NCBI GenBank assembly: GCA_959608625.1
Contig: CAUHQV010000001.1
Span: 39,783-103,782 of the forward strand
DNA from: an uncultured Flavobacteriales bacterium
Lineage (GTDB): Bacteria > Bacteroidota > Bacteroidia > Flavobacteriales > UBA1820
Direction of reading: 5' to 3'
Length of the DNA stretch: 64,000 bases
Shown here: in pieces, positions 2,015-62,944 of the stretch
Position numbering within the stretch: the first letter of the stretch is position 1
Layout: each line of letters begins with the position of its first letter
The notes under the pieces: model-generated
Database searches by the model: none
What the model saw: the letters and a program-made list of their open reading frames with translations, nothing else
Told to the model about the DNA's origin: nothing
Translations under genes and position numbers: made by a program

Positions 2015-2064
2015 TATGTCTTGTTTTTTGTTCGTATTCCGGCCGGTTGCGGCCTTTCGGGTAA

Positions 2065-2072
2065 CAAATATA
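2065..2072 (-). promoter_or_regulatory. Candidate Bacteroidetes -7 promoter element (TATATTTG on minus strand) for the thioredoxin-fold lipoprotein/fprA unit
   Basis: Plus strand reads CAAATATA, reverse complement TATATTTG, which matches TAnnTTTG. It lies about 50 nt upstream of the ATG at 2014. Confidence 0.35.
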
Positions 2073-2084
2073 AGTCATATTTCG

Positions 2085-2092
2085 TACATTTG
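2085..2092 (+). promoter_or_regulatory. Candidate -7 promoter element TACATTTG for the eamA-eamA-bioD operon
   Basis: Exact TAnnTTTG match 22 nt upstream of the ATG at 2114. It lies inside the ORF-track N-terminal extension (2021..), which argues for the 2114 start. Confidence 0.4.
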
Positions 2093-2113
2093 CCCGCGTT
2101 AGTTGTATCCGGA

Positions 2114-3082
2114 ATGAGAAAACTGTTCACTTCCACGACTTTTCTGGCCGTGATATGTTGCATCCTTTGGGCATCGCCTTTTGTCCCGCTCAAGATAGGG
2201 CTGGAGATCATGCCGCGCCCATTGGAGTTCGCAGGGTACCGCTTTTTCCTGGCCGGTTTTTTCATCGCCTTGTTCTATGCCCTGTCGCGCATAGGGAAGA
2301 AGAACGATCCCGGTAAAGGAGGCTATTTCGCCCAGGTGCGGCGCAATTTCCCGAAAATACTGCTTATATCGGTATTTCATACTTCCCTGCTGTACACCTG
2401 TTTCTACATGGGGCAGATGCGCGTGGAAGCGGCCATCGGAGCCCTTGTGGTGGGTTCCCAACCGCTGTTTGTGGCGGTGTTCGCCCATTTTATGAAGCGC
2501 GACGACCGGCTGTCCTGGCGGAAAACGGCTGCCATTCTGCTCGGGCTGGCCGGGCTGGTGATTATCGCTTCCGGCAAAATATCGGGGGCCGATTTCCTGG
2601 GGTGGACCCCGATCCTCGGCATCCTGTTCCTGGTGGGCAACAACATGACGTCCGCATTTTCCAATGTCTTGATATCCCGTACCCAGACCGACCGGCTGGA
2701 TCCATTGGTGTTCTCCTCCTCGCAGTTGATGGTGGGCGGGCTTACCTTGTTGGCCATATCGTATCCGGTTGCCGGTTTTCACGGGTTTCCTACACAGGGA
2801 ATTTGGTGGGTGTCGCTGGCCGTACTGGTGTTCATTTCGACGGTAGCTATCGGGCTGTGGTTCGTGCTGCTGGCCCGTCCGGGTATAAAAGTATCCGAAC
2901 TGAATATGTGGAAATTCCTCATCCCGGTGGTCGGTTCGATGGAAAGCTGGGCGCTGATGCCGAATGAGTATCCTCAGTTGTATTCGGTAGTGGGGTTGCT
3001 CGTCCTCACCTCGTCCTTGGTGCTGCTGAACTATGGTAACCTGTACCGGGCTATATTTCAAAAAAATCCTCTCGAGAGATGA
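2114..3082 (+). CDS. EamA/DMT-superfamily permease (paralog 1 of tandem pair)
   Basis: Track ORF 2021..3082 trimmed to MRKLFTSTTFLAVICCILWAS. About 10 hydrophobic helices. Shares end motifs with the next gene (LWASxFVPxKxGLE, KVSELNMWKFLxPVxGSxESW). Confidence 0.85.
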   Translation: MRKLFTSTTFLAVICCILWASPFVPLKIGLEIMPRPLEFAGYRFFLAGFFIALFYALSRIGKKNDPGKGGYFAQVRRNFPKILLISVFHTSLLYTCFYMGQMRVEAAIGALVVGSQPLFVAVFAHFMKRDDRLSWRKTAAILLGLAGLVIIASGKISGADFLGWTPILGILFLVGNNMTSAFSNVLISRTQTDRLDPLVFSSSQLMVGGLTLLAISYPVAGFHGFPTQGIWWVSLAVLVFISTVAIGLWFVLLARPGIKVSELNMWKFLIPVVGSMESWALMPNEYPQLYSVVGLLVLTSSLVLLNYGNLYRAIFQKNPLER

Positions 3083-4026
3083 AGAAAATAATATTTTCCA
3101 CGCCTTTTTTGGCTATTATGACCTGCCTGTTGTGGGCTTCGACCTTCGTGCCTACCAAAGTGGGTCTCGAATACCTTTCTTCCCCCCTGCAGTTCGCGGG
3201 ATACACATACCTGATCGCAGGCGTCGTGCTGATGCCTTGGGCCCGGATCGGCCCCCGGTATTTCCGTCAGGTGAAGGACAACCTGTGGCTGATGATAAAA
3301 GTAGCCCTTTTCTCCACGACGATACTCTACGGAGCCTATTACCTGGGACAAAACCTGCTCGACGCCTCGCTGGCATCGCTCATCGTGAGCGCCCAGCCGT
3401 TCTTCGTGGCCGTGATGGCGCATTTCATGCTCAAGACCGACCGTTTTACTCCGCTCAAAGTGTTCAGCATCGCCCTGGCGGTGGTAGGCTTGGTGGTAGT
3501 GAGTTTCCCCAGCCTGATCAACATGCAGGCGATGGGTGTGGCGGCCATAGGCGGTATTTTGCTGATGCTGGTGAACTGCGTTTCGGCGGCTTACGGCAAT
3601 ATCATCGTCTCGCAAATCGATTTTTCCAAAGTGGATATCCGGGTGCTCAATTCGGCGGAACTGACTATCGGCGGCGCACTACTGCTCGCCCTGGCGGCTA
3701 TCACCGGCGACTGGCAGCCGTTCCCCACGGCCGGAATGTTCCACATCGCCCTGGTGATAAAAGTGTTCATCGCCGTCACGACGATGGTCACCTGGTTTGC
3801 CCTGCTGGCCCGTCCGGAAGTGAAAGTTTCGGAACTCAATATGTGGAAATTCCTGATGCCGGTGTTCGGATCGATCGAGAGCTGGCTGCTGATGACGGGC
3901 GACAATCCCAATGCCTTTACCGTGGCCGGGCTGTTCATCCTGACCGCTTCGCTGCTCATATTCTACAATCGGCCCCTACGGGATTTCTTTTTCAGGAAGA
4001 AAAATACGGCTAAAACAGAAAAATAA
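3079..4026 (+). CDS. EamA/DMT-superfamily permease (paralog 2 of tandem pair)
   Basis: 315-aa polytopic ORF. The start overlaps the previous stop (ATGA at 3079-3082). Clear paralog of the 2114..3082 product. Confidence 0.85.
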   Translation: MKKIIFSTPFLAIMTCLLWASTFVPTKVGLEYLSSPLQFAGYTYLIAGVVLMPWARIGPRYFRQVKDNLWLMIKVALFSTTILYGAYYLGQNLLDASLASLIVSAQPFFVAVMAHFMLKTDRFTPLKVFSIALAVVGLVVVSFPSLINMQAMGVAAIGGILLMLVNCVSAAYGNIIVSQIDFSKVDIRVLNSAELTIGGALLLALAAITGDWQPFPTAGMFHIALVIKVFIAVTTMVTWFALLARPEVKVSELNMWKFLMPVFGSIESWLLMTGDNPNAFTVAGLFILTASLLIFYNRPLRDFFFRKKNTAKTEK

Positions 4027-11812: not shown

Positions 11813-12906
11813 AGCGGCTGAAGATACTCGACTGGTATATCCTCAAGAATTTCCTGGGCACTTTCCTGGTGACCGAGGTGGTGATCCTCGTATTGGCGGT
11901 GGTGGTCGATATGTCGGAAAAGATCGACAAATACCTCACCAACGAGGCCCCGATGATCGAGATCGTCAAGTATTACCTGAATTTCGCGCTTTATTACGGC
12001 AACATGTACATGTCGCTGGTCGTATTCCTGGCGGCGACCATTTTTACGTCCAAGTTCGCGGCCCGTTCGGAGATCATCGCCATTATGAGCGCGGGGGTGA
12101 ATTACAACCGTTTCCTCCGCCCGTATCTTGTGGGGGCAACGCTTTTGATGTGCTTTTCGATGGTGATCAACAATTTCATCCTGCCGTATTCCAACGTGCG
12201 CCGTTTCGCTTTCGAGGCGAAGTATGTCAAACCCCAGCGGCAGGACTTCCAATTTGAACAGAACATCCACAAACAGGTCGGGCCGGGGCAGATGCTGTAT
12301 ATATACGACTGGAACATCGGTCAAAAGACCGGGCAAAAATTTGCGCTCGAACAGTACGATTCCACAGGGGCGCTGGTTCATAAATTTTCGGCGGACAATA
12401 TCCGGTACGATGAAGATTCGGCCCGGTACCATATTTCTACCTTTTTCGTCCGCGACCTGAATCCCGACGGGTCGGACAATCTCAGATCGGGCTATTTGTT
12501 GGATACGATTTTCCCGTTCACCCCGGCCGATTTTACCAAAGATAAACGCATCGGGGACAAAAAAAACTCCCTCGAACTGGAAAAATTGATAAAACTGGAA
12601 CAGGAGCGGGGTTCGCCGGACGTACGGGCGCTTATTACCGAAAAATACAAACGGTTCGCTCTGCCTTTTTCCTGTATTATCCTTACGCTGCTGGCGGTAT
12701 CCCTCTGCTCGCGCAAGAAGCGGGGCGGGGCGGGGATCAACATCGCGGTGGGCATTGTGCTGATGGCGGCTTATTTATTCATGCTCCGTATCTTTGAAAC
12801 CACCGCCGCCAAGAGTGTCGATGGGTATCCGCTTTTCTGGATATGGCTCCCCAATATCTTGTTCGCAGGGATAGCTTATTATCTGTACCGCAATGCAAAG
12901 AAGTGA
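11809..12906 (+). CDS. LptF/LptG-family LPS export permease
   Basis: Trimmed to MKRLKILDWYILKNFLGTFL (ATGA overlap with the tgt stop). N-terminal 3 TM, a periplasmic beta-jellyroll-sized loop, then C-terminal 3 TM. Confidence 0.85.
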   Translation: MKRLKILDWYILKNFLGTFLVTEVVILVLAVVVDMSEKIDKYLTNEAPMIEIVKYYLNFALYYGNMYMSLVVFLAATIFTSKFAARSEIIAIMSAGVNYNRFLRPYLVGATLLMCFSMVINNFILPYSNVRRFAFEAKYVKPQRQDFQFEQNIHKQVGPGQMLYIYDWNIGQKTGQKFALEQYDSTGALVHKFSADNIRYDEDSARYHISTFFVRDLNPDGSDNLRSGYLLDTIFPFTPADFTKDKRIGDKKNSLELEKLIKLEQERGSPDVRALITEKYKRFALPFSCIILTLLAVSLCSRKKRGGAGINIAVGIVLMAAYLFMLRIFETTAAKSVDGYPLFWIWLPNILFAGIAYYLYRNAKK

Positions 12907-13825
12907 CCATAAAGCGCACCCGTACCTCTCCCTCCATCTCGTTATCCTGATATTCGGTTTTACCGGGATACTCGGGCGGTACATCGATACCCCGCCTACG
13001 GCCCTGACCATTTACCGTACCGGGCTTACGTTCATCTGCCTGGGGCTTTTCATGTGGTACAAAGGCATGTCTTTCCGGGTGGGGACAAAAAACATCGTCC
13101 TGCTCCTGCTTTCGGGCGGGGTAATAGGTATACACTGGGTATTGTTCTTTTCGGCTATCAAGCAGGCCAACGTTTCGGTGACCATGGCGATGCTCGCTAC
13201 GGGAGCTTTGTTCGCTTCGTTCCTCGAACCCGTATTTTATCACCGCCGCCTGCGTATCCATGAAGTCCTGTTCGGGCTGCTGGCCGTAGTGGGTATATTC
13301 GTCATATCGGGGCAGAATTCCGATTTCCACGGCGGGATCATTACCGCATTGGCCGCCTCGTTCGTATCGGCCTGTTATTCCATCATCAACAGCAAGTGGT
13401 ACCGCAAGTTTCCCAACGATGCGGTGATGGTGTCCTTTTACGAAATGGTCGGCGCCGTGGTGGTCGTAGCCTTGGTGTTCGCCCCGACGGAAGGTTTTGT
13501 GCAGGGATTGGGAAAAGTCGACTTAAAGGATGCTTTGGGTATCCTGTTCCTGGCGATCGTATGTACTTCGTATACCAGCGTACGGATGATCCAATTGTTC
13601 CGTTACCTTTCGCCGTTCACCGTGATGCTCAATATCAACCTCGAGCCGGTGTATGCCATGCTGATGGCGGCGGTCCTGTACCCGGACGAGCGGATGTCGG
13701 GGACTTTTTATGCCGGGGCGGCCATTATCCTTTCCACGGTAGTACTCAACGCCCTGCTGAACAATTACCGCGACCGCCGCAAGGCCAAACGCCTGGCTGC
13801 GGGGAAGGAAAAAATGGCGAATTAA
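12893..13825 (+). CDS. DMT/EamA-superfamily permease
   Basis: 310-aa 10-TM ORF overlapping the lptF/G end by 14 nt. Two EamA-like halves. Confidence 0.8.
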
Positions 13826-28019: not shown

Positions 28020-28145
28020 TCGGTGGGTAAATAGTGTTTTCGATTCAGCGCACTAAATTACTCAAAAGGTGCATCAATAATAGTTATCGTTCGTTTTTCC
28101 AGATTATTTTTTCATTTTCGGCTTGATTTATATTTCTTTTTTGAT

Positions 28146-28153
28146 TATATTTG
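28146..28153 (+). promoter_or_regulatory. Candidate -7 element TATATTTG for the tape-measure-like gene
   Basis: Exact TAnnTTTG in a roughly 32 percent GC spacer, 35 nt before the ATG at 28188. This makes the track GTG start at 28167 less likely. Confidence 0.4.
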
Positions 28154-28187
28154 ATAAGAATGATGTGTGATAATAAAAGGAAATGAA

Positions 28188-29699
28188 ATGGCAAAACAAG
28201 TAAATAAAAGTAAAACGGGTGGTAAACTCTCAAAATCCCAGGAACAGGAGATCGCAAAAGCGGAAGCCAATATCGCGGAATTAAAAAAACAGATCACCGA
28301 CAGTCTTGCCGGAATTAATGTCCTGGCGCGGGGATTGGTGGGATTCAACAGTGCGCTCGACCAGGCTGGCCGGTTGATTATCGATCTGGCTTCGGATGGA
28401 AAGGTACTGGTAAAAAGCCTGACTAATATAGTCGGCGACCTGAAAAAATCCAAAATTGTATCCGCAGGACAGAAAAATGCGGACGGAGGACAGGGGGGCC
28501 CAGCTGCCGCTGGGGATGTAGCCCAGGCAGGCGCTTCGATCGCAGGAGGAGCGGGTGAATCGAAAAAAGGGTTCGATCTAGGGGATATATTTTCCGGAGT
28601 GGGTGCGGGTTTTTCTATTGTGTCCGGCATATTTGGCATATTTCGCCGACGCAAGGAAGAAGAAAAAAAGTATCGGCGGGAAATGGAACAGGCGCTCAAC
28701 GATCAGTTAACAGCGGAGGTGGCGTTGTCGATGGCTACGTCCAAACGGTTGATCGATGAGCAATCCATTACCCGGGAGAAATACAAACAAATCGAAGCCG
28801 GCCTGAACAGATCGTCCGTTAGCCGGCGGGGGGTAATAGCCGATATCGATGAGGATATGGAAGAGATGTACCGGAAATTGAACGGGAATTACAGTTCCAA
28901 ATACAAGCGAGGTGTTGGAAATTATTACAAAGCGTTGCTGGATCTCAAGAATCACAAGGACGATCTCGAATGGCTTCAAACGATAGGGGATAACCCGTTG
29001 ATCACCCGGAGCGATGATTCGTACGACCGATATAAAAGCCTTTACGAGCGTCTGCTGAAGATCGCGGAGCAGGAAAAGGAATGGAAAGACCAGCAGAAAC
29101 AACTGGCCGATGGTGTGATCGACTCGTCCGCGCAGACGTTGGCGGATTCCTGGGTGGATGCATTCAAAAAAGGAGAGGAAGCTACATGGGATTTTGCCAA
29201 GAATTTCGAAGATGTGATGCGCCAGGCTATCATCAACGGATTTTCCGACTCGGTGATCGCGGCACAGATAGACCCGATATTCAATAAGTTCCGGGACAAG
29301 ATCATGGGATACCTTTCCGGCGATCTCGATTTGGAAGAGGTCGTGACCCCGGACCTGGAAAAGGAGATAGAACAAACGGCCGAAAAGATCAAAAAACTGT
29401 CGCCCGAACTGAAAAATATTCTGGAAAAATTGGGCCTTGAAGTGGACAATTCGGGTTCGGAAACGATGTCGGCCGCGATAAAGGGGGTGAGCGAAGAAAC
29501 CGCTTCGCTGGTAGCCGGGCAGATGAACGCGATCCGCACCAACCAGCTGAAATCGTTGGATCTGTTTGCCGAGAGTGTGGCTTCTTTGGGGCTGATAGAG
29601 GCCAATACCCGCTACAACCGCTACCTGGAGAGCATAGATCGCAGGCTTAGCCTGTTGTCGGCTTCCGGCGGGTCGTTACGTGCCGCCGGGCTTTCCTAA
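28188..29699 (+). CDS. Orphan coiled-coil membrane protein resembling a phage tail tape-measure protein
   Basis: 503 aa from MAKQVNKSK. Long heptad-like helices. Gly-rich segment and one TM (FSGVGAGFSIVSGIFGIF followed by RRRKEEEKK). Motif LADSWVDAFKKGEEATWDFAKNFEDVMRQAIINGF. C-terminal AGQMNAIRTNQ. No similarity search was possible. Confidence 0.75.
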   Translation: MAKQVNKSKTGGKLSKSQEQEIAKAEANIAELKKQITDSLAGINVLARGLVGFNSALDQAGRLIIDLASDGKVLVKSLTNIVGDLKKSKIVSAGQKNADGGQGGPAAAGDVAQAGASIAGGAGESKKGFDLGDIFSGVGAGFSIVSGIFGIFRRRKEEEKKYRREMEQALNDQLTAEVALSMATSKRLIDEQSITREKYKQIEAGLNRSSVSRRGVIADIDEDMEEMYRKLNGNYSSKYKRGVGNYYKALLDLKNHKDDLEWLQTIGDNPLITRSDDSYDRYKSLYERLLKIAEQEKEWKDQQKQLADGVIDSSAQTLADSWVDAFKKGEEATWDFAKNFEDVMRQAIINGFSDSVIAAQIDPIFNKFRDKIMGYLSGDLDLEEVVTPDLEKEIEQTAEKIKKLSPELKNILEKLGLEVDNSGSETMSAAIKGVSEETASLVAGQMNAIRTNQLKSLDLFAESVASLGLIEANTRYNRYLESIDRRLSLLSASGGSLRAAGLS

Positions 29700-29753
29700 A
29701 GGGGATAGGAGTCTTTTTTGTTTTTCAGCTTATTGTGTTTGTTGTTTAGGGTG

Positions 29754-29793
29754 GCGCGCCGCACGGGTCTTTTCCGTGCGGCGCGCTTTTTTT
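29754..29793 (+). terminator. Strong rho-independent terminator after the tape-measure-like gene
   Basis: 13-bp GC stem GCGCGCCGCACGG/CCGTGCGGCGCGC, 7-nt loop, T7 run. Confidence 0.85.
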
Positions 29794-29802
29794 GAAAAGA
29801 AA

Positions 29803-32658: not shown

Positions 32659-32874
32659 TTATTTTTTGCCCGTAAGGGCCTGTATGACATATTCCGTTTT
32701 TTGCTCCTGTGTGTCGAAATTGGCCGACATGTAGTTTTCGAAGAAAAAGACCTTCAGTACCACGAACATGATGACCAGTTTGACGATGACAATAGCCCAT
32801 AGCAGGCGCCCCAGCCGACCCATCCGGGCGAATCCGTCCCGGTAGAAACAGTAGACATTCCGAATGGCTTGCAT
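32659..32874 (-). CDS. DUF4492-like small membrane protein preceding cydAB
   Basis: 71 aa. FYRDGFARMGRLGRLLWAIVIVKLVIMFVVLKVFFF. This position upstream of cydA is typical in Bacteroidetes as I recall. Confidence 0.75.
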   Translation of the reverse strand: MQAIRNVYCFYRDGFARMGRLGRLLWAIVIVKLVIMFVVLKVFFFENYMSANFDTQEQKTEYVIQALTGKK

Positions 32875-33020: not shown

Positions 33021-33062
33021 TAAAAAGCGCGAGAGGGGAGCCATTCGGCTCCCCTCTCGCGC
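33021..33062 (-). terminator. Rho-independent terminator of the GH43 gene
   Basis: 16-bp stem GCGCGAGAGGGGAGCC/GGCTCCCCTCTCGCGC with a 4-nt loop. T5 run on the minus strand. Confidence 0.8.
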
Positions 33063-37235: not shown

Positions 37236-38009
37236 ATGAAATTGATATTTTTGGGAACGGGTACCTCGCAGGGGGTACCGATGATAGGGAGCAAAAGTCC
37301 GGTGTCGCGTTCGAAGGACCCACGGGACAACCGCCTGCGTACCTCGGCGGCCGTGGTGACCGATAGCGGGCATATCATTTTGCTGGACTGCGGGCCGGAT
37401 TTCCGGTACCAAATGCTCCGGGCCGGTTTGTCCGACCTGGACGGAATCCTGTTCACCCACGCCCATGCCGACCATACCGCCGGATTGGACGACGTACGGC
37501 CTATTTGTTATTTCCGCAGCCATGATATCGATATCTATGCCAAAGAGGATGTAATAGAGTCGCTCCACGCCCGGTTCGCCTATGTATTCGCCCAGGGGGC
37601 CGCCCGTTATCCCGGTGCGCCCGACGTGGCCGAACACGTCATTACCGACGAGCCTTTTTACGTGCGCGATGTAAAAGTAATCCCTATACCGGCCAGTCAC
37701 GGCTGGATCGGGGTAACCGGATACCGGATCGGCAATATGGCGTACCTGACAGATGTGAAGACCATGTACGAGAGTTCGTATAAGCTGCTCGAAGGCCTCG
37801 ATGTGCTGGTGCTGAACTGCCTGCGGCACAGCGACCCGCACCCCACGCATATGATACTGCCCGAATCGCTGGAAGTGGTGCAGCGTATCGCGCCGAAAAA
37901 GGCCTATTTCACGCATATCAGCGAGGCGATGGGCTTTGCCGCCGAGGCGGAGAAACTACTGCCCGAAGGGGTACATTTGGCTTACGATACGCTCGAGATC
38001 GAATTATAA
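37236..38009 (+). CDS. MBL-fold metallo-hydrolase (PhnP/GPMM-like)
   Basis: MKLIFLGTGTSQGVP and FTHAHADHTAG (HxHxDH). Confidence 0.85.
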   Translation: MKLIFLGTGTSQGVPMIGSKSPVSRSKDPRDNRLRTSAAVVTDSGHIILLDCGPDFRYQMLRAGLSDLDGILFTHAHADHTAGLDDVRPICYFRSHDIDIYAKEDVIESLHARFAYVFAQGAARYPGAPDVAEHVITDEPFYVRDVKVIPIPASHGWIGVTGYRIGNMAYLTDVKTMYESSYKLLEGLDVLVLNCLRHSDPHPTHMILPESLEVVQRIAPKKAYFTHISEAMGFAAEAEKLLPEGVHLAYDTLEIEL

Positions 38010-44098: not shown

Positions 44099-45055
44099 TT
44101 ACGTTTTCAGATGGCCTTTCTGTTTCTGAAGGCTGAAATATTTCTGCAGTTTGACAAACGGGTTGTTTTCGCGGTTCTTGTTGAGTATCACCAGGAATAC
44201 GGCGCATATCACCAATACGAACCCCAGCACCGAACGGGAACTGAAACCTTCCCCCAGGCACAGGATCCCCACCACCATGGCGGTAAGCGGTTCGGCCGAT
44301 CCCAGGATGGACGTCACCACCGGCCCGGCATTCTTTACCGCCTTGAGCAGCGCGATATTGGGAATGACGGTGGATAGGACAGCCACACCCGCGATCATCT
44401 TCCACTCGTATGCCGTATTTAGTGGTTGCAGTCCGCCTTCGGCCAGGGTCGTCAGGGCGAACAGGAAAGACCCGATCACGAATATATAGAACATCATGGG
44501 GATACTCTGTACTGTGCTGACCGACGAACGGTTCACGATGATCAGGTACGAGGCGTACCAGAAGATCGTCGATCCCGCCCATATAATGCCCCGCATATCC
44601 AGTGAGCCGTCCGGCGACCAGCACAACAGTGCCACTCCGGCTACGGCCATGAACATAGCCGTGAAGATGGTTTTCGAGCGCCGCTCCTTGAACACGAATA
44701 TCATGATGGCGGTAACGATGACCGGATAGATGAAATGGATGGTCGTGGCCACCCCGCTGGGGATATACATGTAAGAATGCACTAAGCCTGTGCCCGACGC
44801 TACGTACATGGCGGCCAACAGGATCAGGATGAAAAATTGCCGGCGGGTGATACGCAGGTTTATCCGTTTTATGAGCACGAATACCGTCAGGATGACGGCC
44901 GCGAACACGAAACGGTAGAACAGCAGGGAAGATATCGGCAGCCCGGCCCCCATCAGGGGTATCGAAAAGAAAGGGAGGAACCCGAACGTTACCGCTGCAA
45001 ACAGACCGAAGAATATGCCTTTTGCGTTGTCTGTTTTCAGGGGGTTCTTGTACAT
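44099..45055 (-). CDS. EamA/DMT-superfamily permease (RarD-like)
   Basis: Trimmed to MYKNPLKTDNAKGIFFGLFAAVTFGFLPFF. 10 TM. Confidence 0.8.
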   Translation of the reverse strand: MYKNPLKTDNAKGIFFGLFAAVTFGFLPFFSIPLMGAGLPISSLLFYRFVFAAVILTVFVLIKRINLRITRRQFFILILLAAMYVASGTGLVHSYMYIPSGVATTIHFIYPVIVTAIMIFVFKERRSKTIFTAMFMAVAGVALLCWSPDGSLDMRGIIWAGSTIFWYASYLIIVNRSSVSTVQSIPMMFYIFVIGSFLFALTTLAEGGLQPLNTAYEWKMIAGVAVLSTVIPNIALLKAVKNAGPVVTSILGSAEPLTAMVVGILCLGEGFSSRSVLGFVLVICAVFLVILNKNRENNPFVKLQKYFSLQKQKGHLKT

Positions 45056-45091
45056 ACGTTGCGGGAACTGATTTAAGGGCTTTGCCCGGTA

Positions 45092-45099
45092 CAAATTTA
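45092..45099 (-). promoter_or_regulatory. Candidate -7 element TAAATTTG (minus strand) for the RarD-like permease
   Basis: Plus strand CAAATTTA, 37 nt upstream of the ATG at 45055. It lies inside the track's long N-terminal extension. Confidence 0.35.
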
Positions 45100-45248
45100 C
45101 GGAAAATGTGTTAAGTTCCGCGCCGGGTATGCCGGAATTTACGTCCGGGCTGAAATCAAGCGCCCTTACAGCGTGGCAGGTATGTATTTTTTTTATAAAT
45201 TGCAACTTCTTACCGGCGTCCCCGGTCGTAGGAAAAATAAGAGGCAAT

Positions 45249-46313
45249 ATGTTCATAGTCAAATGGGTAGTAAAAGCGATCAATATCCTGTGCGCAATAG
45301 CGTTGGCGGTCGCGTTCATCTGTCCCCATTTTTCACCCCAGACGCTGCCTTATATTTCGACGGTAGGATTTGTGGTGCCGTTTCTGATCATCGTCAATAT
45401 TTTCTTCGTAATACTCTGGGCCGTACGGTTGAATATATTCGTCCTCTATTCGGTTTTCGCGTTGTTGGTGGGGATAGGCCAACTCGGTCATTTTTTCGCG
45501 ATAGGCTCCTCCAGCAAGCCCGATGGCGCCGATACACTCCGTATTGTCAGTTATAACGTGCATGGTTTCAGTTATAAAAAAAGCAAAGGCGACAATCCTG
45601 CGGAAAAAATACACCGCGAGATCGTAAAATACGCACCCGATATCGTTTGTTTTCAGGAATATGCCCCCCGGAAGATAAGCCTTCCCGAATTGAAATACTC
45701 GTATGTGCAGAACCATGGCTGGTTCGGGGACGCTATTTTTTCCCGGTATCCTATTGTGGGGCAGGGGACGCTCAATTTCCAGCGGACGCAGAACAACGCT
45801 ATCTATGCCGATATTTTGCTTCCGGATAAAAAAATCGTGCGGGTCTATAGTGTGCACCTGCAGTCGCTCGGCATTACGGCCGATGAGGTGAACGAGCTCG
45901 CGTCCCTCTCTTCGGACAAACTGAAGAGCCGGGCAAAAGGCCTTTTATGGCGCATAAATTCCGGTTTTGTCCGCCAGCAGGCCCAGGTAGAGGCTGTGCG
46001 GGCCAGTATGGACCGATCGCCGTATCCCTGTATCGTAGCGGGGGATTTCAACAATACGCCGTTCTCCTATTCTTTCCTCAAATTGGAAGGGGATAATATG
46101 GACGACGCCTTTGCGAAGGCCGGTTTCGGCTTGGGGAAGACTTTCCGGGAGATAAAATTGTATCCCTTGCGCATCGATTTTATCCTTTCGGATAAAGAAG
46201 CCTTCAAGGTGAACCGCTTCTCCACTATCCACAGCGATGCCAGCGACCATAACGGGATCACGGCCCTTCTGTCGCTGAAGGATGTAAAAGAAAAACAAGA
46301 AGAAGAACAATAA
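45249..46313 (+). CDS. Membrane-anchored endonuclease/exonuclease/phosphatase (EEP) family protein
   Basis: Trimmed to MFIVKWVVKAINIL. 3-4 N-terminal TM, then LRIVSYNVHGF, IVCFQE, VAGDFNNTP and SDASDHNGI. Confidence 0.8.
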   Translation: MFIVKWVVKAINILCAIALAVAFICPHFSPQTLPYISTVGFVVPFLIIVNIFFVILWAVRLNIFVLYSVFALLVGIGQLGHFFAIGSSSKPDGADTLRIVSYNVHGFSYKKSKGDNPAEKIHREIVKYAPDIVCFQEYAPRKISLPELKYSYVQNHGWFGDAIFSRYPIVGQGTLNFQRTQNNAIYADILLPDKKIVRVYSVHLQSLGITADEVNELASLSSDKLKSRAKGLLWRINSGFVRQQAQVEAVRASMDRSPYPCIVAGDFNNTPFSYSFLKLEGDNMDDAFAKAGFGLGKTFREIKLYPLRIDFILSDKEAFKVNRFSTIHSDASDHNGITALLSLKDVKEKQEEEQ

Positions 46314-53592: not shown

Positions 53593-53638
53593 GCAAAAAA
53601 AATCATTTGCCTGCCCGGCAGCGCAATTCTAACAGAAC

Positions 53639-54382
53639 ATGAAGGTAAAAACCATACTCGTTTCCCAGCAGGAACCTAAAGCGGAAGGTTCGCCATATGG
53701 CGAATTGGAGCAGAAATTCGGAGTCAAAGTCGACTTTATGCCTTTTTCCCTGGTGGAAGGAGTGGATGCGTCGGCCGTCCGGAAGCAGAAGATCGACCTG
53801 AAAAATTATACGGCGCTCATTCTCAACAGTAAAAACGCAGTAGACCATTATTTCCGTATCGCCGATGAAATGCGTTTCAAGGTGCCGGATACCATGAAAT
53901 ATTTTTGCCAGACGGAAACGATAGCCTACTACCTTCAGAAGTATGTGGTATACCGTAAACGAAAAATATATATCGGAGGCAAGGTTTTCGAGGACGTGGT
54001 CAAACTGATAAAAAAGCACCGTTCCGAAACATTCCTGATGCCTACTTCCGACAGCCTGCGCCCGGAGATACCGGCCACTCTCGATGAAACGGGGATAAAA
54101 TGGGATCGCGCTATCCTGTATACCAACGTTTACGCGGATCTTTCGTCTCTGAAGGATAAAAAATACGATATCCTGGCTTTCTTTACCCCGGCCGCCCTGA
54201 AATCGATGTTCCATAACTTCCCCGATTTCGAGCAAGGGGATATCCGTATTGCCACTTTCGGGGTTTCCACGTTCAAGGAAGCGGAAGCATCCGGCCTTAC
54301 GGTAGACATCAAGGCCCCCTCTCCGGAAGCTCCTTCGATGGCGATGGCGCTGCAGGAATATATTAAGGCAGCCAATAAATAG
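53639..54382 (+). CDS. hemD: Uroporphyrinogen-III synthase (HemD-like)
   Basis: 247 aa. MKVKTILVSQQEP, ILNSKNAVDHYF and AFFTPAALKSM fit the Bacteroidetes HemD family. The antisense 394-aa ORF is rejected. Confidence 0.8.
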   Translation: MKVKTILVSQQEPKAEGSPYGELEQKFGVKVDFMPFSLVEGVDASAVRKQKIDLKNYTALILNSKNAVDHYFRIADEMRFKVPDTMKYFCQTETIAYYLQKYVVYRKRKIYIGGKVFEDVVKLIKKHRSETFLMPTSDSLRPEIPATLDETGIKWDRAILYTNVYADLSSLKDKKYDILAFFTPAALKSMFHNFPDFEQGDIRIATFGVSTFKEAEASGLTVDIKAPSPEAPSMAMALQEYIKAANK

Positions 54383-54487
54383 GTACATGTATCGAAACAC
54401 CGTCCGGACGCCATTTAGGCGCCCGGACTTTTTTTGCCCTGCCTGTATGGGGAAAAACCGTACCTTTGCGCATAATCGATAGAAGTC

Positions 54488-55189
54488 ATGCTGCTTATAT
54501 ACGAAGATATGCCACTCAGTGGGATCATTGAAGAAAATGTTTCGTTGATCCCTCTGCTGGATCGTTTCGGCATCTCCCTGGGTATGGCCGACAAAACGGT
54601 GGGGGAAGTATGTGCCGGGCAGGGGATAGATACCGGCTTTTTCCTGACGGTACTCAATACTTTTCTGAACGAAGATTATTTTCCCGAGAAAAAATTCGCG
54701 GCCTTCCATATCGAACAAATCGTGGATTATCTGCGCAAGACCAACCTGTATTACCGGAATTACCAGCTCCCCAATATAGAACGCCACTTAAAAGGTTTTG
54801 TCGGCTCGGCCGCCGGTCAAAATCCATCTCTGGTTATGGTGGGAAATATTTTTTCCCGGGCGAGGAATTTACTGTTGGAACGCATCGAACGGGATGAGCA
54901 TTCGTTTTTTCCATACGTATCCGGGCTTTGTGCCGATCATCCCCAAATTTCCGACCGGCAGATGATCCGGCAGGAAGACGATGCTCAGGACAGCGGATGG
55001 GAGCTGCTCCACGATATAAAGAGCGTCATGATCCGGCATTTGACGGGGAATTACGACCGGAACCTCTGCTATGCCGTCCTGTTTGCCGTGTCGGCCCTCG
55101 AACGGGACGTGAAACAGCATGACCGTATCCGTTACCGTATTTTGGAACCGGCTGTCAGGGCGATGGAGAAAGCCAAAAAACAGGGATAA
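54488..55189 (+). CDS. ScdA-N/hemerythrin-like helical protein (putative sensor partner of the next gene)
   Basis: The N-terminus PLSGIIEENVSLIPLLDRFGISLGMADKTVGEVCAGQGIDTGFFLTVLN resembles the ScdA/RIC N-terminal domain. The remainder is helical with spaced His/Glu. The assignment is tentative. Confidence 0.55.
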   Translation: MLLIYEDMPLSGIIEENVSLIPLLDRFGISLGMADKTVGEVCAGQGIDTGFFLTVLNTFLNEDYFPEKKFAAFHIEQIVDYLRKTNLYYRNYQLPNIERHLKGFVGSAAGQNPSLVMVGNIFSRARNLLLERIERDEHSFFPYVSGLCADHPQISDRQMIRQEDDAQDSGWELLHDIKSVMIRHLTGNYDRNLCYAVLFAVSALERDVKQHDRIRYRILEPAVRAMEKAKKQG

Positions 55190-55191
55190 CG

Positions 55192-55743
55192 ATGCGGAAC
55201 CTCCGAAGAATAGCGGTCATTTCCCAGGATACTTTGCGGGCTACAGGCCTTCAGAATATGCTGGTGTCCTATTTTTCTCCGGTGGAGACGGATCTGTTCC
55301 CTCTGGAAGAACTGGAGAATGGCCTTCCGGGCGAGTACGACTATTATTTTATCGACAAAGGGTTGGCGGATACATACGGGCTAGTGTTTCCGGGGGTAAA
55401 AGTGATGTATCTTTCTCCCGGTCGGGAAAGTTGCGGTGCATGCTGCCTTGATGTATCTATCGGTGTACAGGAAATACTGGGGGCTATCGAGACCTTCTTT
55501 TCGGACGGCTGCGAGGATCAGGAGCGCAGCAAAACATTGACCGACCGCGAGATACAAGTGCTCCGGCAGATAGCCTCCGGTGCGATAAACAAGGAGATCG
55601 CCGACCGGCTGTCCATCAGTTTCAATACCGTCCTCACACACCGGAAGAATATCACGGCCAAAACAGGGATTAAAACCGTTTCCGGGCTCACCTTCTACGC
55701 GATCATCAACGGGTACGCTTCCCCGTCCGATATCGAATTCTAG
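55192..55743 (+). CDS. LuxR-family (GerE HTH) transcriptional regulator with atypical N-terminal domain
   Basis: C-terminal LTDREIQVLRQIASGAINKEIADRLSISFNTVLTHRKNITAKTG. Starts 3 nt after the previous stop. Confidence 0.85.
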   Translation: MRNLRRIAVISQDTLRATGLQNMLVSYFSPVETDLFPLEELENGLPGEYDYYFIDKGLADTYGLVFPGVKVMYLSPGRESCGACCLDVSIGVQEILGAIETFFSDGCEDQERSKTLTDREIQVLRQIASGAINKEIADRLSISFNTVLTHRKNITAKTGIKTVSGLTFYAIINGYASPSDIEF

Positions 55744-56753
55744 TTCACGGTTTTCAGTCCGAGAATATTTTCCGAAAAAGAGAAAATGGCTTTTTCTACC
55801 GATGGGATGTCTTTTGAAACGATCCCGCTGGCCATCGGGTGCACTCCTACATCAGGCAGTTCCACGTACACATTCTCGTGGGGCGGAGTGCCCAGTTCAG
55901 ACACCATCTTGCGGATTTCGCTTACCCGTACAGTGCCATCCTGGTGTTTTTTATCTTTGTAATAGGCCAATGTGAGACACGGTACCGTTACTTTCTCAAA
56001 AGTTTTCCGGGTCATCGTAGCATCGACCAATACTTGCAATTGCACGGTGGACTCCAGCCTCGCTCCTTCGCTCCAGGCCTCCGGGTGATAGGAGCCCGGG
56101 TTTATCGGCATATACTTGCCGCCCATCACCAGCCGGGCGATCTGCAATCCCCAAGGGCCATCCAGGAGTTTCACCCCGAAGTCGGCTGGCAGGATGTTGG
56201 GGGAAATATTGATAAGCGCCGTGACTTTTCCCGGATAGGTGGCTGCCAAATAGAGAGCGAGCGTCCCTCCGGTAGATGTACTCATTATCAGTATTTTGTC
56301 GCCCAGTTTTTCGGCCACGGCCAGCGCGTTCTTCGCGCTTTCCCACAGGCATTCGGCGGTCATATCTAACAACGGCTCTTTCGTATCCAGTCCGTGTGCA
56401 CACAGGCGGGGAGCGTACAGGTTGCACCCGTACCGGGCGGCAAAATCGGTGGTCACCGGTTCGCCTTCGAGCCGTGAAGCGCTGTACCCGTGCAAGTATA
56501 ATAGAACGTACTGCGTGCGCGCCATCGTGTCGGCGTGCCAGAAAATACGGGCTTCGTTGTCTTTTTTTACATTCCCGAGGCTCTGTTCCGCCGCATTTAT
56601 GCTGTCCTGAAGCGCGGTCAGGGAAGAGGGCACTACTGGGAAAGCGGCAGATAGAACGGGTTTTTCCGGGCGCGGGCCAGCCAGATAAAGGATGGCCAGG
56701 AGAATAACAATCGCACCCGTGATAGAAAATATCCGGTGTTTTTTCGTTTTCAT
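55740..56753 (-). CDS. Alpha/beta-hydrolase-fold esterase/lipase, membrane-anchored or secreted
   Basis: 337 aa. N-terminal hydrophobic anchor. YLHGYSAS. Nucleophile elbow MSTSTGG. Confidence 0.8.
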   Translation of the reverse strand: MKTKKHRIFSITGAIVILLAILYLAGPRPEKPVLSAAFPVVPSSLTALQDSINAAEQSLGNVKKDNEARIFWHADTMARTQYVLLYLHGYSASRLEGEPVTTDFAARYGCNLYAPRLCAHGLDTKEPLLDMTAECLWESAKNALAVAEKLGDKILIMSTSTGGTLALYLAATYPGKVTALINISPNILPADFGVKLLDGPWGLQIARLVMGGKYMPINPGSYHPEAWSEGARLESTVQLQVLVDATMTRKTFEKVTVPCLTLAYYKDKKHQDGTVRVSEIRKMVSELGTPPHENVYVELPDVGVHPMASGIVSKDIPSVEKAIFSFSENILGLKTVN

Positions 56754-61891: not shown

Positions 61892-62944
61892 TTATTTCTT
61901 CCGGGGAGCATCGGGCCTCCCTTGTCCCGGGCGCTGCGCGTTCGCATCGCCCGGCCGTTTACCGGGCCCGGAAATACGGACGGTATCCGCCTTCATCATC
62001 ATGGAACGGGAGCGGTCGCCGTGTGACATCGCATCTTTGGCGAATTTGAGATCGGCCTTGTACAGTTTTACCAACTGCTCGTCATTAAGGGTTTTGCCAA
62101 GGGCTTTATACATCTCGTACCGCTTTTGCTCGATGGTGATGTTGTTTTTCAGGATGGGCTCCAGAGCATCCTGCCAGCCCGTCTTTTTGAGTAAAGCGCT
62201 GTTTTCCTTGCGCAAGTCTTCGATCTGTTTATTGTACGAGTCGTACGTTTTTTCGAATGCCTCTTTCTGGTCGTCTTTCAGGCCGATGGCGCGTGTGAGA
62301 TATTGCATGCGCATCCGATCCATGGACTTTTTCATGGCGGGAGTCCCCTTGGTAAGTATGATCACGCCGTTGCGGGCCTTTTCCCCGTATTTCTTCACCG
62401 CTTCATCCGTTTTGAGGATAGAGATGGAGCTGATGTTGTCCCGGTCGACGGACTCGATGGAAGGCACTTCTTTCCCGTCGTAAATAACCAGGGGTTGCAT
62501 GGCTTTGCGAGCCTCGAAAACGGATTTTTGGGCTTTTACCAAAGCGTTCTGAACTTGCTTGGAATCCATGTTTTGTTTGAATTCCTCCTGAACCTTTTTA
62601 AGTTGCGCTTCCGCATCTTTGAGAGCCTGAAGATTTTTGGTATCGATCATTTTCGTTCCGTGGTCTGTTCCGCGCTTTACCATCTGCTCTTTCTGGTAAG
62701 TCACCAGGGCTTTCTGGGCGGCGATGAATTTATCGGCCGCTTCTTTCGAGTCGGGGGCCTCCATCAGGGCTTTTTGAGCTTTCGCCACATTGCTGCGCAG
62801 TTCTTTTTCTTTGCTGTCGCTCTGCGACATGCTCATACGCATTTGGCCGGAAGACGATTTGCCTATCGTCATCTGGGTCGTATTCTGCGCTGCAAGCCCC
62901 AGGGAGAGACACAGTGCGAGAGTGAGTAACATGTATTTTTTCAT
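61892..62944 (-). CDS. Secreted helical protein with central plug-like beta motif (third gene of the ECF operon)
   Basis: 350 aa. Signal peptide MKKYMLLTLALCLSLGLAAQ. Long Lys/Gln/Glu-rich helices with LxxxQ-type repeats. Central LVIYDGKEVPSIESVDRDNISSISILKTDEAVKKYGEKARNGVIILTKG. Pro/Gly/Arg tail. Confidence 0.7.
   Translation of the reverse strand: MKKYMLLTLALCLSLGLAAQNTTQMTIGKSSSGQMRMSMSQSDSKEKELRSNVAKAQKALMEAPDSKEAADKFIAAQKALVTYQKEQMVKRGTDHGTKMIDTKNLQALKDAEAQLKKVQEEFKQNMDSKQVQNALVKAQKSVFEARKAMQPLVIYDGKEVPSIESVDRDNISSISILKTDEAVKKYGEKARNGVIILTKGTPAMKKSMDRMRMQYLTRAIGLKDDQKEAFEKTYDSYNKQIEDLRKENSALLKKTGWQDALEPILKNNITIEQKRYEMYKALGKTLNDEQLVKLYKADLKFAKDAMSHGDRSRSMMMKADTVRISGPGKRPGDANAQRPGQGRPDAPRKK

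Follow-up and report, generated by a model that had tools for sequence, protein, structure and literature searches.

A gene for a homolog of the C-terminal part of phage tape measure proteins at a conserved chromosomal locus in uncultured gut Flavobacteriales

We analyzed a 64,000-nucleotide stretch of DNA, referred to here as the window, from an uncultured Flavobacteriales bacterium of the UBA1820 lineage (GenBank assembly GCA_959608625.1, contig CAUHQV010000001.1, positions 39,783 to 103,782 of the forward strand). Our subject is one gene at 28188..29699 on the plus strand (coordinates are those of the window). Its open reading frame (ORF), profile and homolog searches, and evidence of purifying selection mark its 503-residue product as a standalone homolog of the C-terminal part of siphovirus tape measure proteins (TMPs). 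A 510-residue frame opens at a GTG at 28167 (+). The ATG at 28188, which gives 503 residues and an end at 29699, is the likely start because orthologs likewise begin with MA(K/S). The gene is divergent from an Omp85-like gene and convergent with cydB, in a block that reads BamD-like, RpoZ-like, Wza, Wzz, Omp85, the gene itself, cydBA, DUF4492, and a P-type ATPase. A Pfam scan of the 26 other ORFs in the window assigned 23 to cellular families, three to no family, and none to a phage family. The families found include an Omp85 domain (PF01103), Wzz, polysaccharide export, a BamD-like lipoprotein, an amidase, TGT, LptF/G, PurD, NhaA, GuaA, and ribonucleotide reductase. An earlier reading of the DNA by eye, the original prediction, had called the gene an orphan with no phage genes around it. 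This description holds for the window and for the loci of relatives.

The original prediction had also described the 503-residue ORF, a glycine-rich patch, a glycine-zipper helix followed by RRRKEEEKK, and several motifs, all of which are present in the translation. The N-terminal part evolves quickly (28233..28586, +) and consists of a long helix (residues 16-93) and a flexible linker rich in Gly, Ala, and Ser (residues 94-133). The linker varies by indels among orthologs and has a predicted local distance difference test (pLDDT) score of 20-35 in our AlphaFold2 models. A glycine-zipper hydrophobic helix, IFSGVGAGFSIVSGIFGIF (residues 134-152), and a basic cluster, RRRKEEEKKYRRE (residues 153-165), come next (28587..28682, +). 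The quoted segment FSGVGAGFSIVSGIFGIF lies here, with the glycine-rich patch before the helix and RRRKEEEKK right after the segment. The helix is rich in small-xxx-small spacing and forms the sole Kyte-Doolittle peak of the protein (19-residue mean of 1.84). In cellular orthologs, the basic cluster reads RRR(K/R)EEEKKY. Residues ~205-280 (28800..29027, +), which include DLEWL..G.NPL, are predicted to form a helical hairpin or bundle and are mostly specific to the cellular lineage. The remaining features are common to phage TMPs. They are the conserved motif LADSWVDAFKKGEEATWDFAKNFEDVMRQAIINGF (residues 318-352; 29139..29243, +), the near-invariant motif AIKGVSEETASLVAGQMNAIRTNQ (residues 430-453; 29475..29546, +), and the C-terminal helices and tail (..IEANTRYNRYLESIDRRL..GGSLRAAGLS; 29547..29696, +), which are colinear with the extreme C-terminus of phage TMPs. 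The AGQMNAIRTNQ...ANTRYN segment corresponds to residues 443-476.

Profile searches linked the protein to phage TMPs, an ancestry that had previously been guessed from composition and motifs. In the PHROGs database, residues 59-503 matched phrog_21917 (E=1e-26; profile positions 1015-1395 of 1395), and the protein also matched phrog_9959, annotated as tail length tape measure protein (E=4.6e-16; profile positions 1171-1705 of 1708). Both matches are restricted to the C-terminal end of very long profiles. A tblastn search of GenBank phages recovered annotated TMPs of Riemerella, Porphyromonas, Elizabethkingia, and Bacteroides phages, and pairwise BLASTP comparisons with phage TMPs gave E values of 1e-27 to 1e-31. 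The protein is colinear with the final ~450-600 residues of siphovirus TMPs that are 1100-1600 residues long, and the order of the aligned segments is kept to the last residue. An 18-residue motif, GVSEETASLVAGQMNAIR, is nearly identical in the protein and in phage TMPs. Three aligned pairs illustrate the match: LGDSLVEAFKKGEDASKAFEETVNEVLQNAIVNQL in phage aligns with LADSWVDAFKKGEEATWDFAKNFEDVMRQAIINGF in the window protein, AVKGVTEETASLVAGQMNAIRINQ with AIKGVSEETASLVAGQMNAIRTNQ, and ANTQYNRYLVKIDRIISLLESSGNSLRSQGLS with ANTRYNRYLESIDRRLSLLSASGGSLRAAGLS. Phage TMPs also carry a hydrophobic segment and a basic cluster at the position of the transmembrane-like helix of the window protein. The likeness to TMPs exceeds composition because the motifs match in order up to the last residue. 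Judged by sequence, the protein is a homolog of the C-terminal part of a phage TMP family. This family is represented by PHROG models, and our scans matched it to no Pfam or NCBIfam model.

The full-length relatives come from phage loci. A profile search found >100 clusters of ~1380-1460-residue proteins, mostly on contigs of a few kb to ~57 kb. One of these proteins (P0079, 1384 residues, labelled as an Alistipes sp. prophage) is a complete member of phrog_21917. Its gene lies after genes for a major capsid protein, a connector, and a protein of tail-tube size, and before genes for a 169-residue protein, a Dit-like 401-residue protein, and a hub-like 1623-residue protein. A second relative (P0130) has the same gene layout, followed by a holin and a glucosaminidase. 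We consider relatives of this type to be TMPs because of their sequence family, length, and gene position. Like the window protein, the full-length phage relatives have no Pfam match.

We made two side observations in these phage loci. The TMP gene is one ORF of ~1384 residues in >100 relatives and is split in two contigs, into overlapping ORFs of 855 and 619 residues (L015:7474-11860) and into ORFs of 538 and 841 residues with a stop between them (L016:3838-7981). The splits could be assembly errors, programmed frameshifts, or stop-codon recoding. In the Alistipes prophage with the full-length TMP, an RVT_1 reverse-transcriptase gene lies just downstream of the tail-fibre region (L018:23203-24155) and may belong to a diversity-generating retroelement that acts on a tail gene.

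We compared the window protein with a functional TMP. Homology to an established TMP family is present for the C-terminal part only. The expected helical, coiled-coil architecture with a glycine-zipper segment is also present (DSSP on both AlphaFold2 models; one helix). The gene is not in a tail module, its neighbors being Omp85-like, Wzz, Wza, and cydBA genes, and its product has 503 residues compared with 1100-1600 in relatives. Because context and length both fail, we do not regard the protein as a functional TMP. The original prediction had allowed for a well-known cellular family instead, and Pfam and NCBIfam assign the 503-residue protein to none: the scans gave nothing above noise and no match to a TMP model.

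The standalone form is rare. We searched 1.84 billion representative proteins exhaustively with HMMER and obtained 3236 relatives at E<=1e-3; 294 of them reached E<=1e-30. Where lengths are listed, nearly all relatives have 1100-1600 residues, and the whole query profile aligns at their extreme C-terminus (for example, 743-1346 of 1346). In each of the 80 best loci on viral contigs, the match extends to within 0-2 residues of the end of a long ORF. The ~500-residue cellular form is a single cluster at 50% identity, compared with >3000 clusters that are mostly giant TMPs. We rejected one candidate for a second standalone form (P0259, 554 residues). The contig is 3.7 kb long, the ORF begins at its base 34, and the gene for a 169-residue protein typical of the phage loci comes next, which identifies this form as a TMP fragment cut off at a contig edge.

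Because >3000 clusters, nearly all of them giant TMPs where listed, stand against one narrow cellular cluster, parsimony favors transfer from phage to cell. An ancient exaptation of the C-terminal part of a TMP by the cell is, on this evidence, very likely. The reverse direction, in which TMPs took up a cellular domain, and the view that the similarity is mere coiled-coil resemblance are together very improbable. Coiled-coil and low-complexity proteins do draw spurious matches, and a search of PDB sequences with the family profile returned just designed coiled coils, viral fusion proteins, and similar noise. However, compositional resemblance would not readily give long identical or near-identical motifs that are colinear to the C-terminus, nor the E values obtained against PHROGs and in pairwise BLASTP, and the spread of the module across Bacteroidota phages speaks against a cellular source.

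The gene has orthologs in metagenome-assembled genomes (MAGs) of uncultured gut Flavobacteriales (UBA1820, Candidatus Merdimorpha stercoravium, MGYG-HGUT-00418, and MGYG-HGUT-02722). It occupies the same position beside cydB at 89%, 60-64%, and 52-54% protein identity, and the whole ~20-kb block is syntenic in relatives. Four protein clusters, which together number 369 member sequences, contain the gene in intact form. The clusters with 220 and 131 members consist almost exclusively of 485-510-residue copies, on contigs of up to 1.98 Mb. More than 20 loci showed no presence/absence variation of the gene. The annotated +/-10 kb around the gene in close relatives is free of phage genes, as are the other orthologous loci we examined. 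The original prediction had raised the possibility of a complete prophage at this site in related strains, and we found none. The G+C content (GC) of the gene, 0.507, is close to the window value of 0.525 and above the 0.36-0.47 of related phage TMP genes; its composition is host-like. The best reading of these data is that a clade of uncultured gut Flavobacteriales (MAGs of the UBA1820 and Ca. Merdimorpha type) inherits the gene vertically as a core gene.

Two apparent exceptions were examined and rejected. A 352-residue ORF (P0020, contig L017) looked like a truncation, but Wzz and CydB are also split on the same contig, which points to a sequencing artefact. A second locus (L028), with ~38% identity for the gene and 49% for CydA, looked like a deeper lineage, but its upstream DNA is almost identical to that of two other relatives (L007 and L024). 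The locus belongs to the L007 lineage but comes from a noisy assembly, with genes split into many frames. Both assemblies are rich in frameshifts, with Wzz, CydB, Wza, and the TMP-like gene all split into several frames, and the low identities and short ORFs obtained from them are not a biological signal.

One lineage departs from the common layout. In the P0016 lineage (L111, GCA_028709885.1), a Poly_export gene of 265 residues lies between the Omp85-like and TMP-like genes, and cydB is still downstream. The Poly_export gene runs in the same direction as the Omp85-like gene, and the locus (L111:5676-7865) lacks the large Wza/Wzz pair. This layout is a local rearrangement of polysaccharide-export genes that adjoin the TMP-derived gene.

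The gene order bears on a proposal, already raised in the original prediction, that the protein forms a system with the divergent Omp85-like gene. The protein would be the inner-membrane partner of an outer-membrane barrel in a two-component envelope system that might also include Wza and Wzz. The Omp85-like gene (PF01103) is adjacent and divergent in most lineages and uses a common promoter spacer, and the neighborhood is rich in envelope genes (BamD-like, Wza, Wzz). Adjacency is weakly informative here, however, since the ~20 kb of synteny takes in unrelated genes (cydAB, the P-type ATPase, and a metallo-beta-lactamase-fold gene). Moreover, the P0016 lineage separates the two genes and lacks the large Wza/Wzz pair, and the constant neighbor is cydB rather than Omp85. 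We found no specific support for the shared system and consider it improbable.

We estimated the ratio of nonsynonymous to synonymous substitution rates (dN/dS, or omega) by the Nei-Gojobori method; synonymous sites are saturated in the deeper pairs. Whole-gene dN/dS was 0.083-0.087 in pairs without saturation and ~0.17 in the deeper ones, values close to those of neighboring genes. Omega differed by region, at 0.12-0.38 for residues 1-133, 0.08-0.10 for residues 134-310, and 0.00-0.04 for residues 311-503. The gene is thus under strong purifying selection, which peaks in the C-terminal domain that resembles TMPs. Relatives are 53-64% identical to the window copy, in step with the envelope neighbors Wza, Wzz, and Omp85 (57-70%). 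Cell-to-cell identity is 25-29% for the N-terminal 133 residues and 59-72% for residues 134-204. Residues 311-352, which contain LADSWVDAFKKGEEATWDFAKNFEDVMRQAIINGF, are 81% identical from cell to cell and 34% from cell to phage, and G329 is invariant across 62-121 sequences. Cell-to-phage identity reaches its maximum of 83% in residues 430-453, which are 87% identical from cell to cell. Invariant columns of this motif in the alignment of cell and phage sequences include G433, V434, G444-R450, and Q453. Across 121 diverse TMPs, R450 is invariant, and Q445, N447, A448, and Q453 are nearly so.

The gene has its own predicted promoter and terminator. A Bacteroidota-type promoter lies at 28122..28153 (+), with cTTG at 28122-28125, 20 nt, and a -7 box, TATATTTG, at 28146-28153. 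It sits in a 168-nt spacer with 29% GC that is common to the divergent Omp85-like gene. The low-GC spacer described in the original prediction is confirmed, as its count of 38 G+C in 28021-28140 is exact. A TTGATT-17-TATATT pattern was also picked out at 28123-28151. The window holds 49 matches to TANNTTTG, with 30.5 expected, and a single -7 box by itself is unremarkable. A non-coding block, TTTTATTTCTTTTTTGATTATATTTG, with cTTG 20 nt upstream of TA, is kept in the window and in five related loci (L001, L005, L007, L024, and L028). The TTATATTTG box is also found in two more (L020 and L022), although coding sequences are merely 53-64% identical. The conservation of this block is noteworthy because synonymous sites are saturated between these relatives.

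Downstream of the gene is an intrinsic terminator at 29753..29794 (+), with a hairpin (29753-29787) that has a 15-pair stem (12 GC pairs) and a 5-nt loop, followed by T7. The GC-rich hairpin with T7 had been correctly seen, but it is not the strongest in the window, as had been claimed. Its folding energy of -30.9 kcal/mol ranks third, after terminator-like hairpins that end near 33026(-) and 61811(-) (-37.8 and -35.0 kcal/mol; GC-rich stems of 16 and 15 pairs). Three relatives (L001, L005, and L007) have a hairpin and T-run at the equivalent place, with differing stem sequences. Every lineage compared retains the promoter block and has a downstream terminator of its own. The conserved promoter block and the downstream hairpin agree with the description of the gene as a self-contained transcription unit. 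As a side observation, 18 nt of the promoter spacer (28094-28111) and 18 nt of the coding sequence (29412-29429), 1300 nt apart, form an inverted repeat with 94% complementarity. This is probably a chance pairing of A/T-rich sequence.

The same data address whether the gene is a decaying prophage remnant whose ORF is open by chance. The TMP fragment is the only phage-derived piece present, as would be expected if all other phage genes had been lost. The other data contradict the remnant view, and we reject it as scarcely credible. We found no relaxed selection, disruption, patchiness, or foreign composition, and the gene is intact in all good assemblies. It persists at the same locus even at 52-54% identity and is found in hundreds of copies from metagenomes, its dN/dS of 0.08-0.17 falls to ~0.02 in the C-terminal domain, its promoter and terminator are conserved, and its GC is host-like. 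The apparent truncations come from assemblies in which housekeeping neighbors are frameshifted as well. The earlier impression that the gene is maintained rather than decaying is thus well founded.

We asked what distinguishes the cellular protein from its phage relatives. It corresponds to about the last third to half of a TMP, and the remainder of the TMP and all other phage genes are gone. The N-terminal portion lost in the cell holds strong transmembrane segments at ~219 and ~355-395 of P0079. The glycine-zipper segment has become more hydrophobic, with Kyte-Doolittle values of 1.77-1.97 in all orthologs compared with 1.24 in the aligned phage segment, PLSIIQGSIGLLTSAFDLF. Residues ~205-280 form an extra helical insertion of ~75 residues; phage sequences fill just 41% of the alignment columns there. 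Both AlphaFold2 monomer models are all-helical by DSSP, and the only very confident part is residues 200-310 in the second model (pLDDT 90-98).

Structures of phage T5 offer a guide to what the captured part may do. In T5, the baseplate hub holds the C-terminus of the TMP as a trimeric coil, and a hydrophobic stretch next to it enters the membrane and forms a channel after ejection (PMC10038345). The authors suggest that trimers may be general among siphophages (PMC10038345). We infer that the captured module corresponds to the membrane-inserting, tip-docking part of the TMP, because its position and architecture, rather than its sequence, match those of T5. Our best joint explanation, which we hold tentatively, is that the C-terminal part of a TMP was captured and now serves as a core host protein in the form of a membrane-associated helical oligomer. 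That the protein is a membrane-associated oligomer is, taken separately, reasonably likely. It would be a homo-oligomer at the inner membrane, probably a trimer as in TMPs (the C-termini of T5 and 80alpha). Its glycine-zipper helices would pack within that membrane, and the RRRK basic cluster would keep the conserved helical domain of ~350 residues on the cytoplasmic face. The retained C-terminal TMP helices would zip into a coiled-coil stalk. A housekeeping or envelope role in the host, rather than immunity, is our provisional preference because the gene behaves as a core gene: it has a fixed locus, no presence/absence variation, neighbor-like omega, and a housekeeping-type promoter, in genomes that are perhaps only ~2 Mb.

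Several points weigh against this explanation. The physiological role is entirely inferred. Fold searches were uninformative, as Foldseek gave no match at E<=0.001 against PDB or BFVD. Its PDB matches were non-significant hits to axonemal filament proteins, and the top named BFVD matches were TMPs that were likewise non-significant and are not counted as evidence. The mean pLDDT was 48.8 and rose to 64.4 with a 62-sequence alignment, which is moderate confidence. The membrane topology is uncertain and awkward. The hydrophobic 19-mer (1.84) and RRRK are conserved, and no signal peptide is present. The positive-inside rule would place the C-terminal domain in the cytoplasm, and the N-out orientation would require export of 133 residues, a Lys-rich part, without a signal peptide. 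Alternatively, the hydrophobic helix may be buried in the oligomer, as in a TMP enclosed by the tail tube. No relative with an empty site (Omp85 beside cydB without the gene), which would help to date the capture and its mode, was found among 11 metagenome and five genome loci. The locus also has no flanking att-like repeats and no tRNA integration site; the sole tRNA gene (Gln) is 5 kb off. Finally, the 83% identity of residues 430-453 to phage TMPs is easily explained by a partner that is still a phage or its TMP.

This last point leads to an alternative in which the protein is a fixed, membrane-anchored TMP mimic that confers anti-phage immunity. A mimic produced constitutively across the clade would poison TMP trimer or channel formation, or tail-tip initiation, by analogy with the gag-derived restriction factor Fv1. 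It could co-assemble with incoming or nascent TMP trimers, occupy the inner-membrane host factor of the TMP, or capture the hub/Dit initiator of the tail tip. The high identity of residues 430-453 and the colinear extreme C-terminus suit such a role. Because this motif is nearly invariant in the 121 diverse TMPs, phages may be unable to change it, so escape may be impossible and a decoy role would be compatible with low dN/dS. The N-terminal third evolves faster, with omega up to 0.38. TMPs and tail assembly are also known targets of bacterial defense: SNIPE binds the TMP at the membrane (PMC13190303), and Tai systems stop tail assembly (PMC11364771). Work on superinfection exclusion by HK97 gp15 is cited in both papers (PMC13190303, PMC11364771). 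However, the gene behaves as a core gene at a fixed locus, with no defense-island or mobile context and with omega like that of its neighbors. PADLOC yielded only a weak LeoBC/LeoB match (LeoBC, E=1e-4, 19.5 bits) in a coiled-coil region, which we rejected as compositional, and the gene has neither a credible PADLOC model match nor a defense-island context; its surroundings are of the housekeeping type. The sole host-labelled prophage with such a TMP is in Alistipes, not in this clade. We regard immunity as an unlikely explanation, though one with more in its favor than the shared Omp85 system.

We compared the protein with known phage and bacterial systems, beginning with the TMPs of Bacteroidota siphoviruses (PHROG 21917/9959; P0079; Riemerella phage RAP44, Porphyromonas, and Elizabethkingia phages), where the C-terminal homology is true homology. 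Common to both are the hydrophobic segment with its basic cluster, the AFKKGE.. motif, GVSEETASLVAGQMNAIR, the ..SLRxxGLS end, and an all-helical prediction. Unlike these TMPs, the window protein lacks the N-terminal two-thirds with its strong transmembrane segments and has a more hydrophobic helix and the extra insertion of ~75 residues. Its gene lies outside a tail module, with no chaperone, Dit, or hub genes, and is chromosomal, vertically inherited, and served by a host-type promoter. T5 pb2 and lambda gpH are alike in general plan, with a hydrophobic membrane stretch near the C-terminus and a trimeric hub-docking coil (PMC10038345). There is no detectable sequence similarity to these proteins or to any solved structure. 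In contrast to them, the window protein has no peptidase or muralytic domain and is made by the cell instead of delivered by a tail.

The nearest precedent we found for reuse of a TMP membrane segment outside a tail, compared by description only, is the Agrobacterium effector Tde1 of the type VI secretion system (T6SS). Its N-terminal glycine-zipper resembles the C-terminal region of Burkholderia TMPs and permeabilises membranes (PMC10240207). In Tde1, a short motif is fused to a DNase toxin and delivered by the T6SS, whereas the window protein is a lone TMP portion of ~500 residues with no toxin domain. SNIPE, Tai, and HK97 gp15 would share a point of attack with the protein if the anti-phage explanation were true, namely TMP-dependent entry or tail assembly. 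None of the three is described as TMP-derived in these papers (PMC13190303, PMC11364771). Tai systems are prevalent in phage-inducible chromosomal islands, prophages, and phage satellites (PMC11364771), and SNIPE occurs in at most ~10% of the genomes of a clade (PMC13190303). Unlike SNIPE and Tai, the window gene is a fixed core gene whose product carries neither a nuclease domain nor any other effector domain.

Tailocins, gene transfer agents, T6SS, and extracellular contractile injection systems all resemble the present case in being phage tail components that bacteria retain under selection. Those systems retain complete multi-gene assemblies, and their TMP still measures the tube. Here, a single TMP fragment stands alone, and we found no report in the open-access literature that a solitary TMP fragment has become fixed as a core gene. 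The event belongs to the exaptations of phage structural genes, and its origin is both well supported and unusual. If confirmed, it would indicate that bacteria can put the membrane-inserting, tip-docking half of a TMP to new use by itself. As a small standalone protein, it isolates the nearly invariant GVSEETASLVAGQMNAIR module of thousands of Bacteroidota phage TMPs and makes the function of that module directly testable. Candidate functions include oligomerisation, hub docking, and host-factor binding. An antiviral role, if true, would establish a new class of defense in which a structural-protein mimic is fixed in a lineage. A cellular role, if true, would add a new virus-derived membrane scaffold in poorly known gut Flavobacteriales.

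A few observations concern other genes in the window. Three ORFs have no Pfam match at E<=1e-5, at 53603-54787 (-, 394 residues), 55740-56753 (-, 337 residues), and 61892-62944 (-, 350 residues). Four EamA-family transporter genes are present (2021-4026, 12893-13825, and 44099-45319), two of which are adjacent. The DUF4492 ORF (32659-32874, -; 71 residues; Pfam E=8e-26) lies immediately upstream of cydA, is kept in all related loci, and resembles a small-subunit or accessory gene of the cytochrome bd operon that is typical of the lineage. The metallo-beta-lactamase-fold gene (37236-38009, +; 257 residues) is 82-98% conserved in the clade, and its ortholog matches both Anti-Pycsar_Apyc1 (PF23023) and Lactamase_B. 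Its product is probably a housekeeping phosphodiesterase rather than an anti-defense protein.

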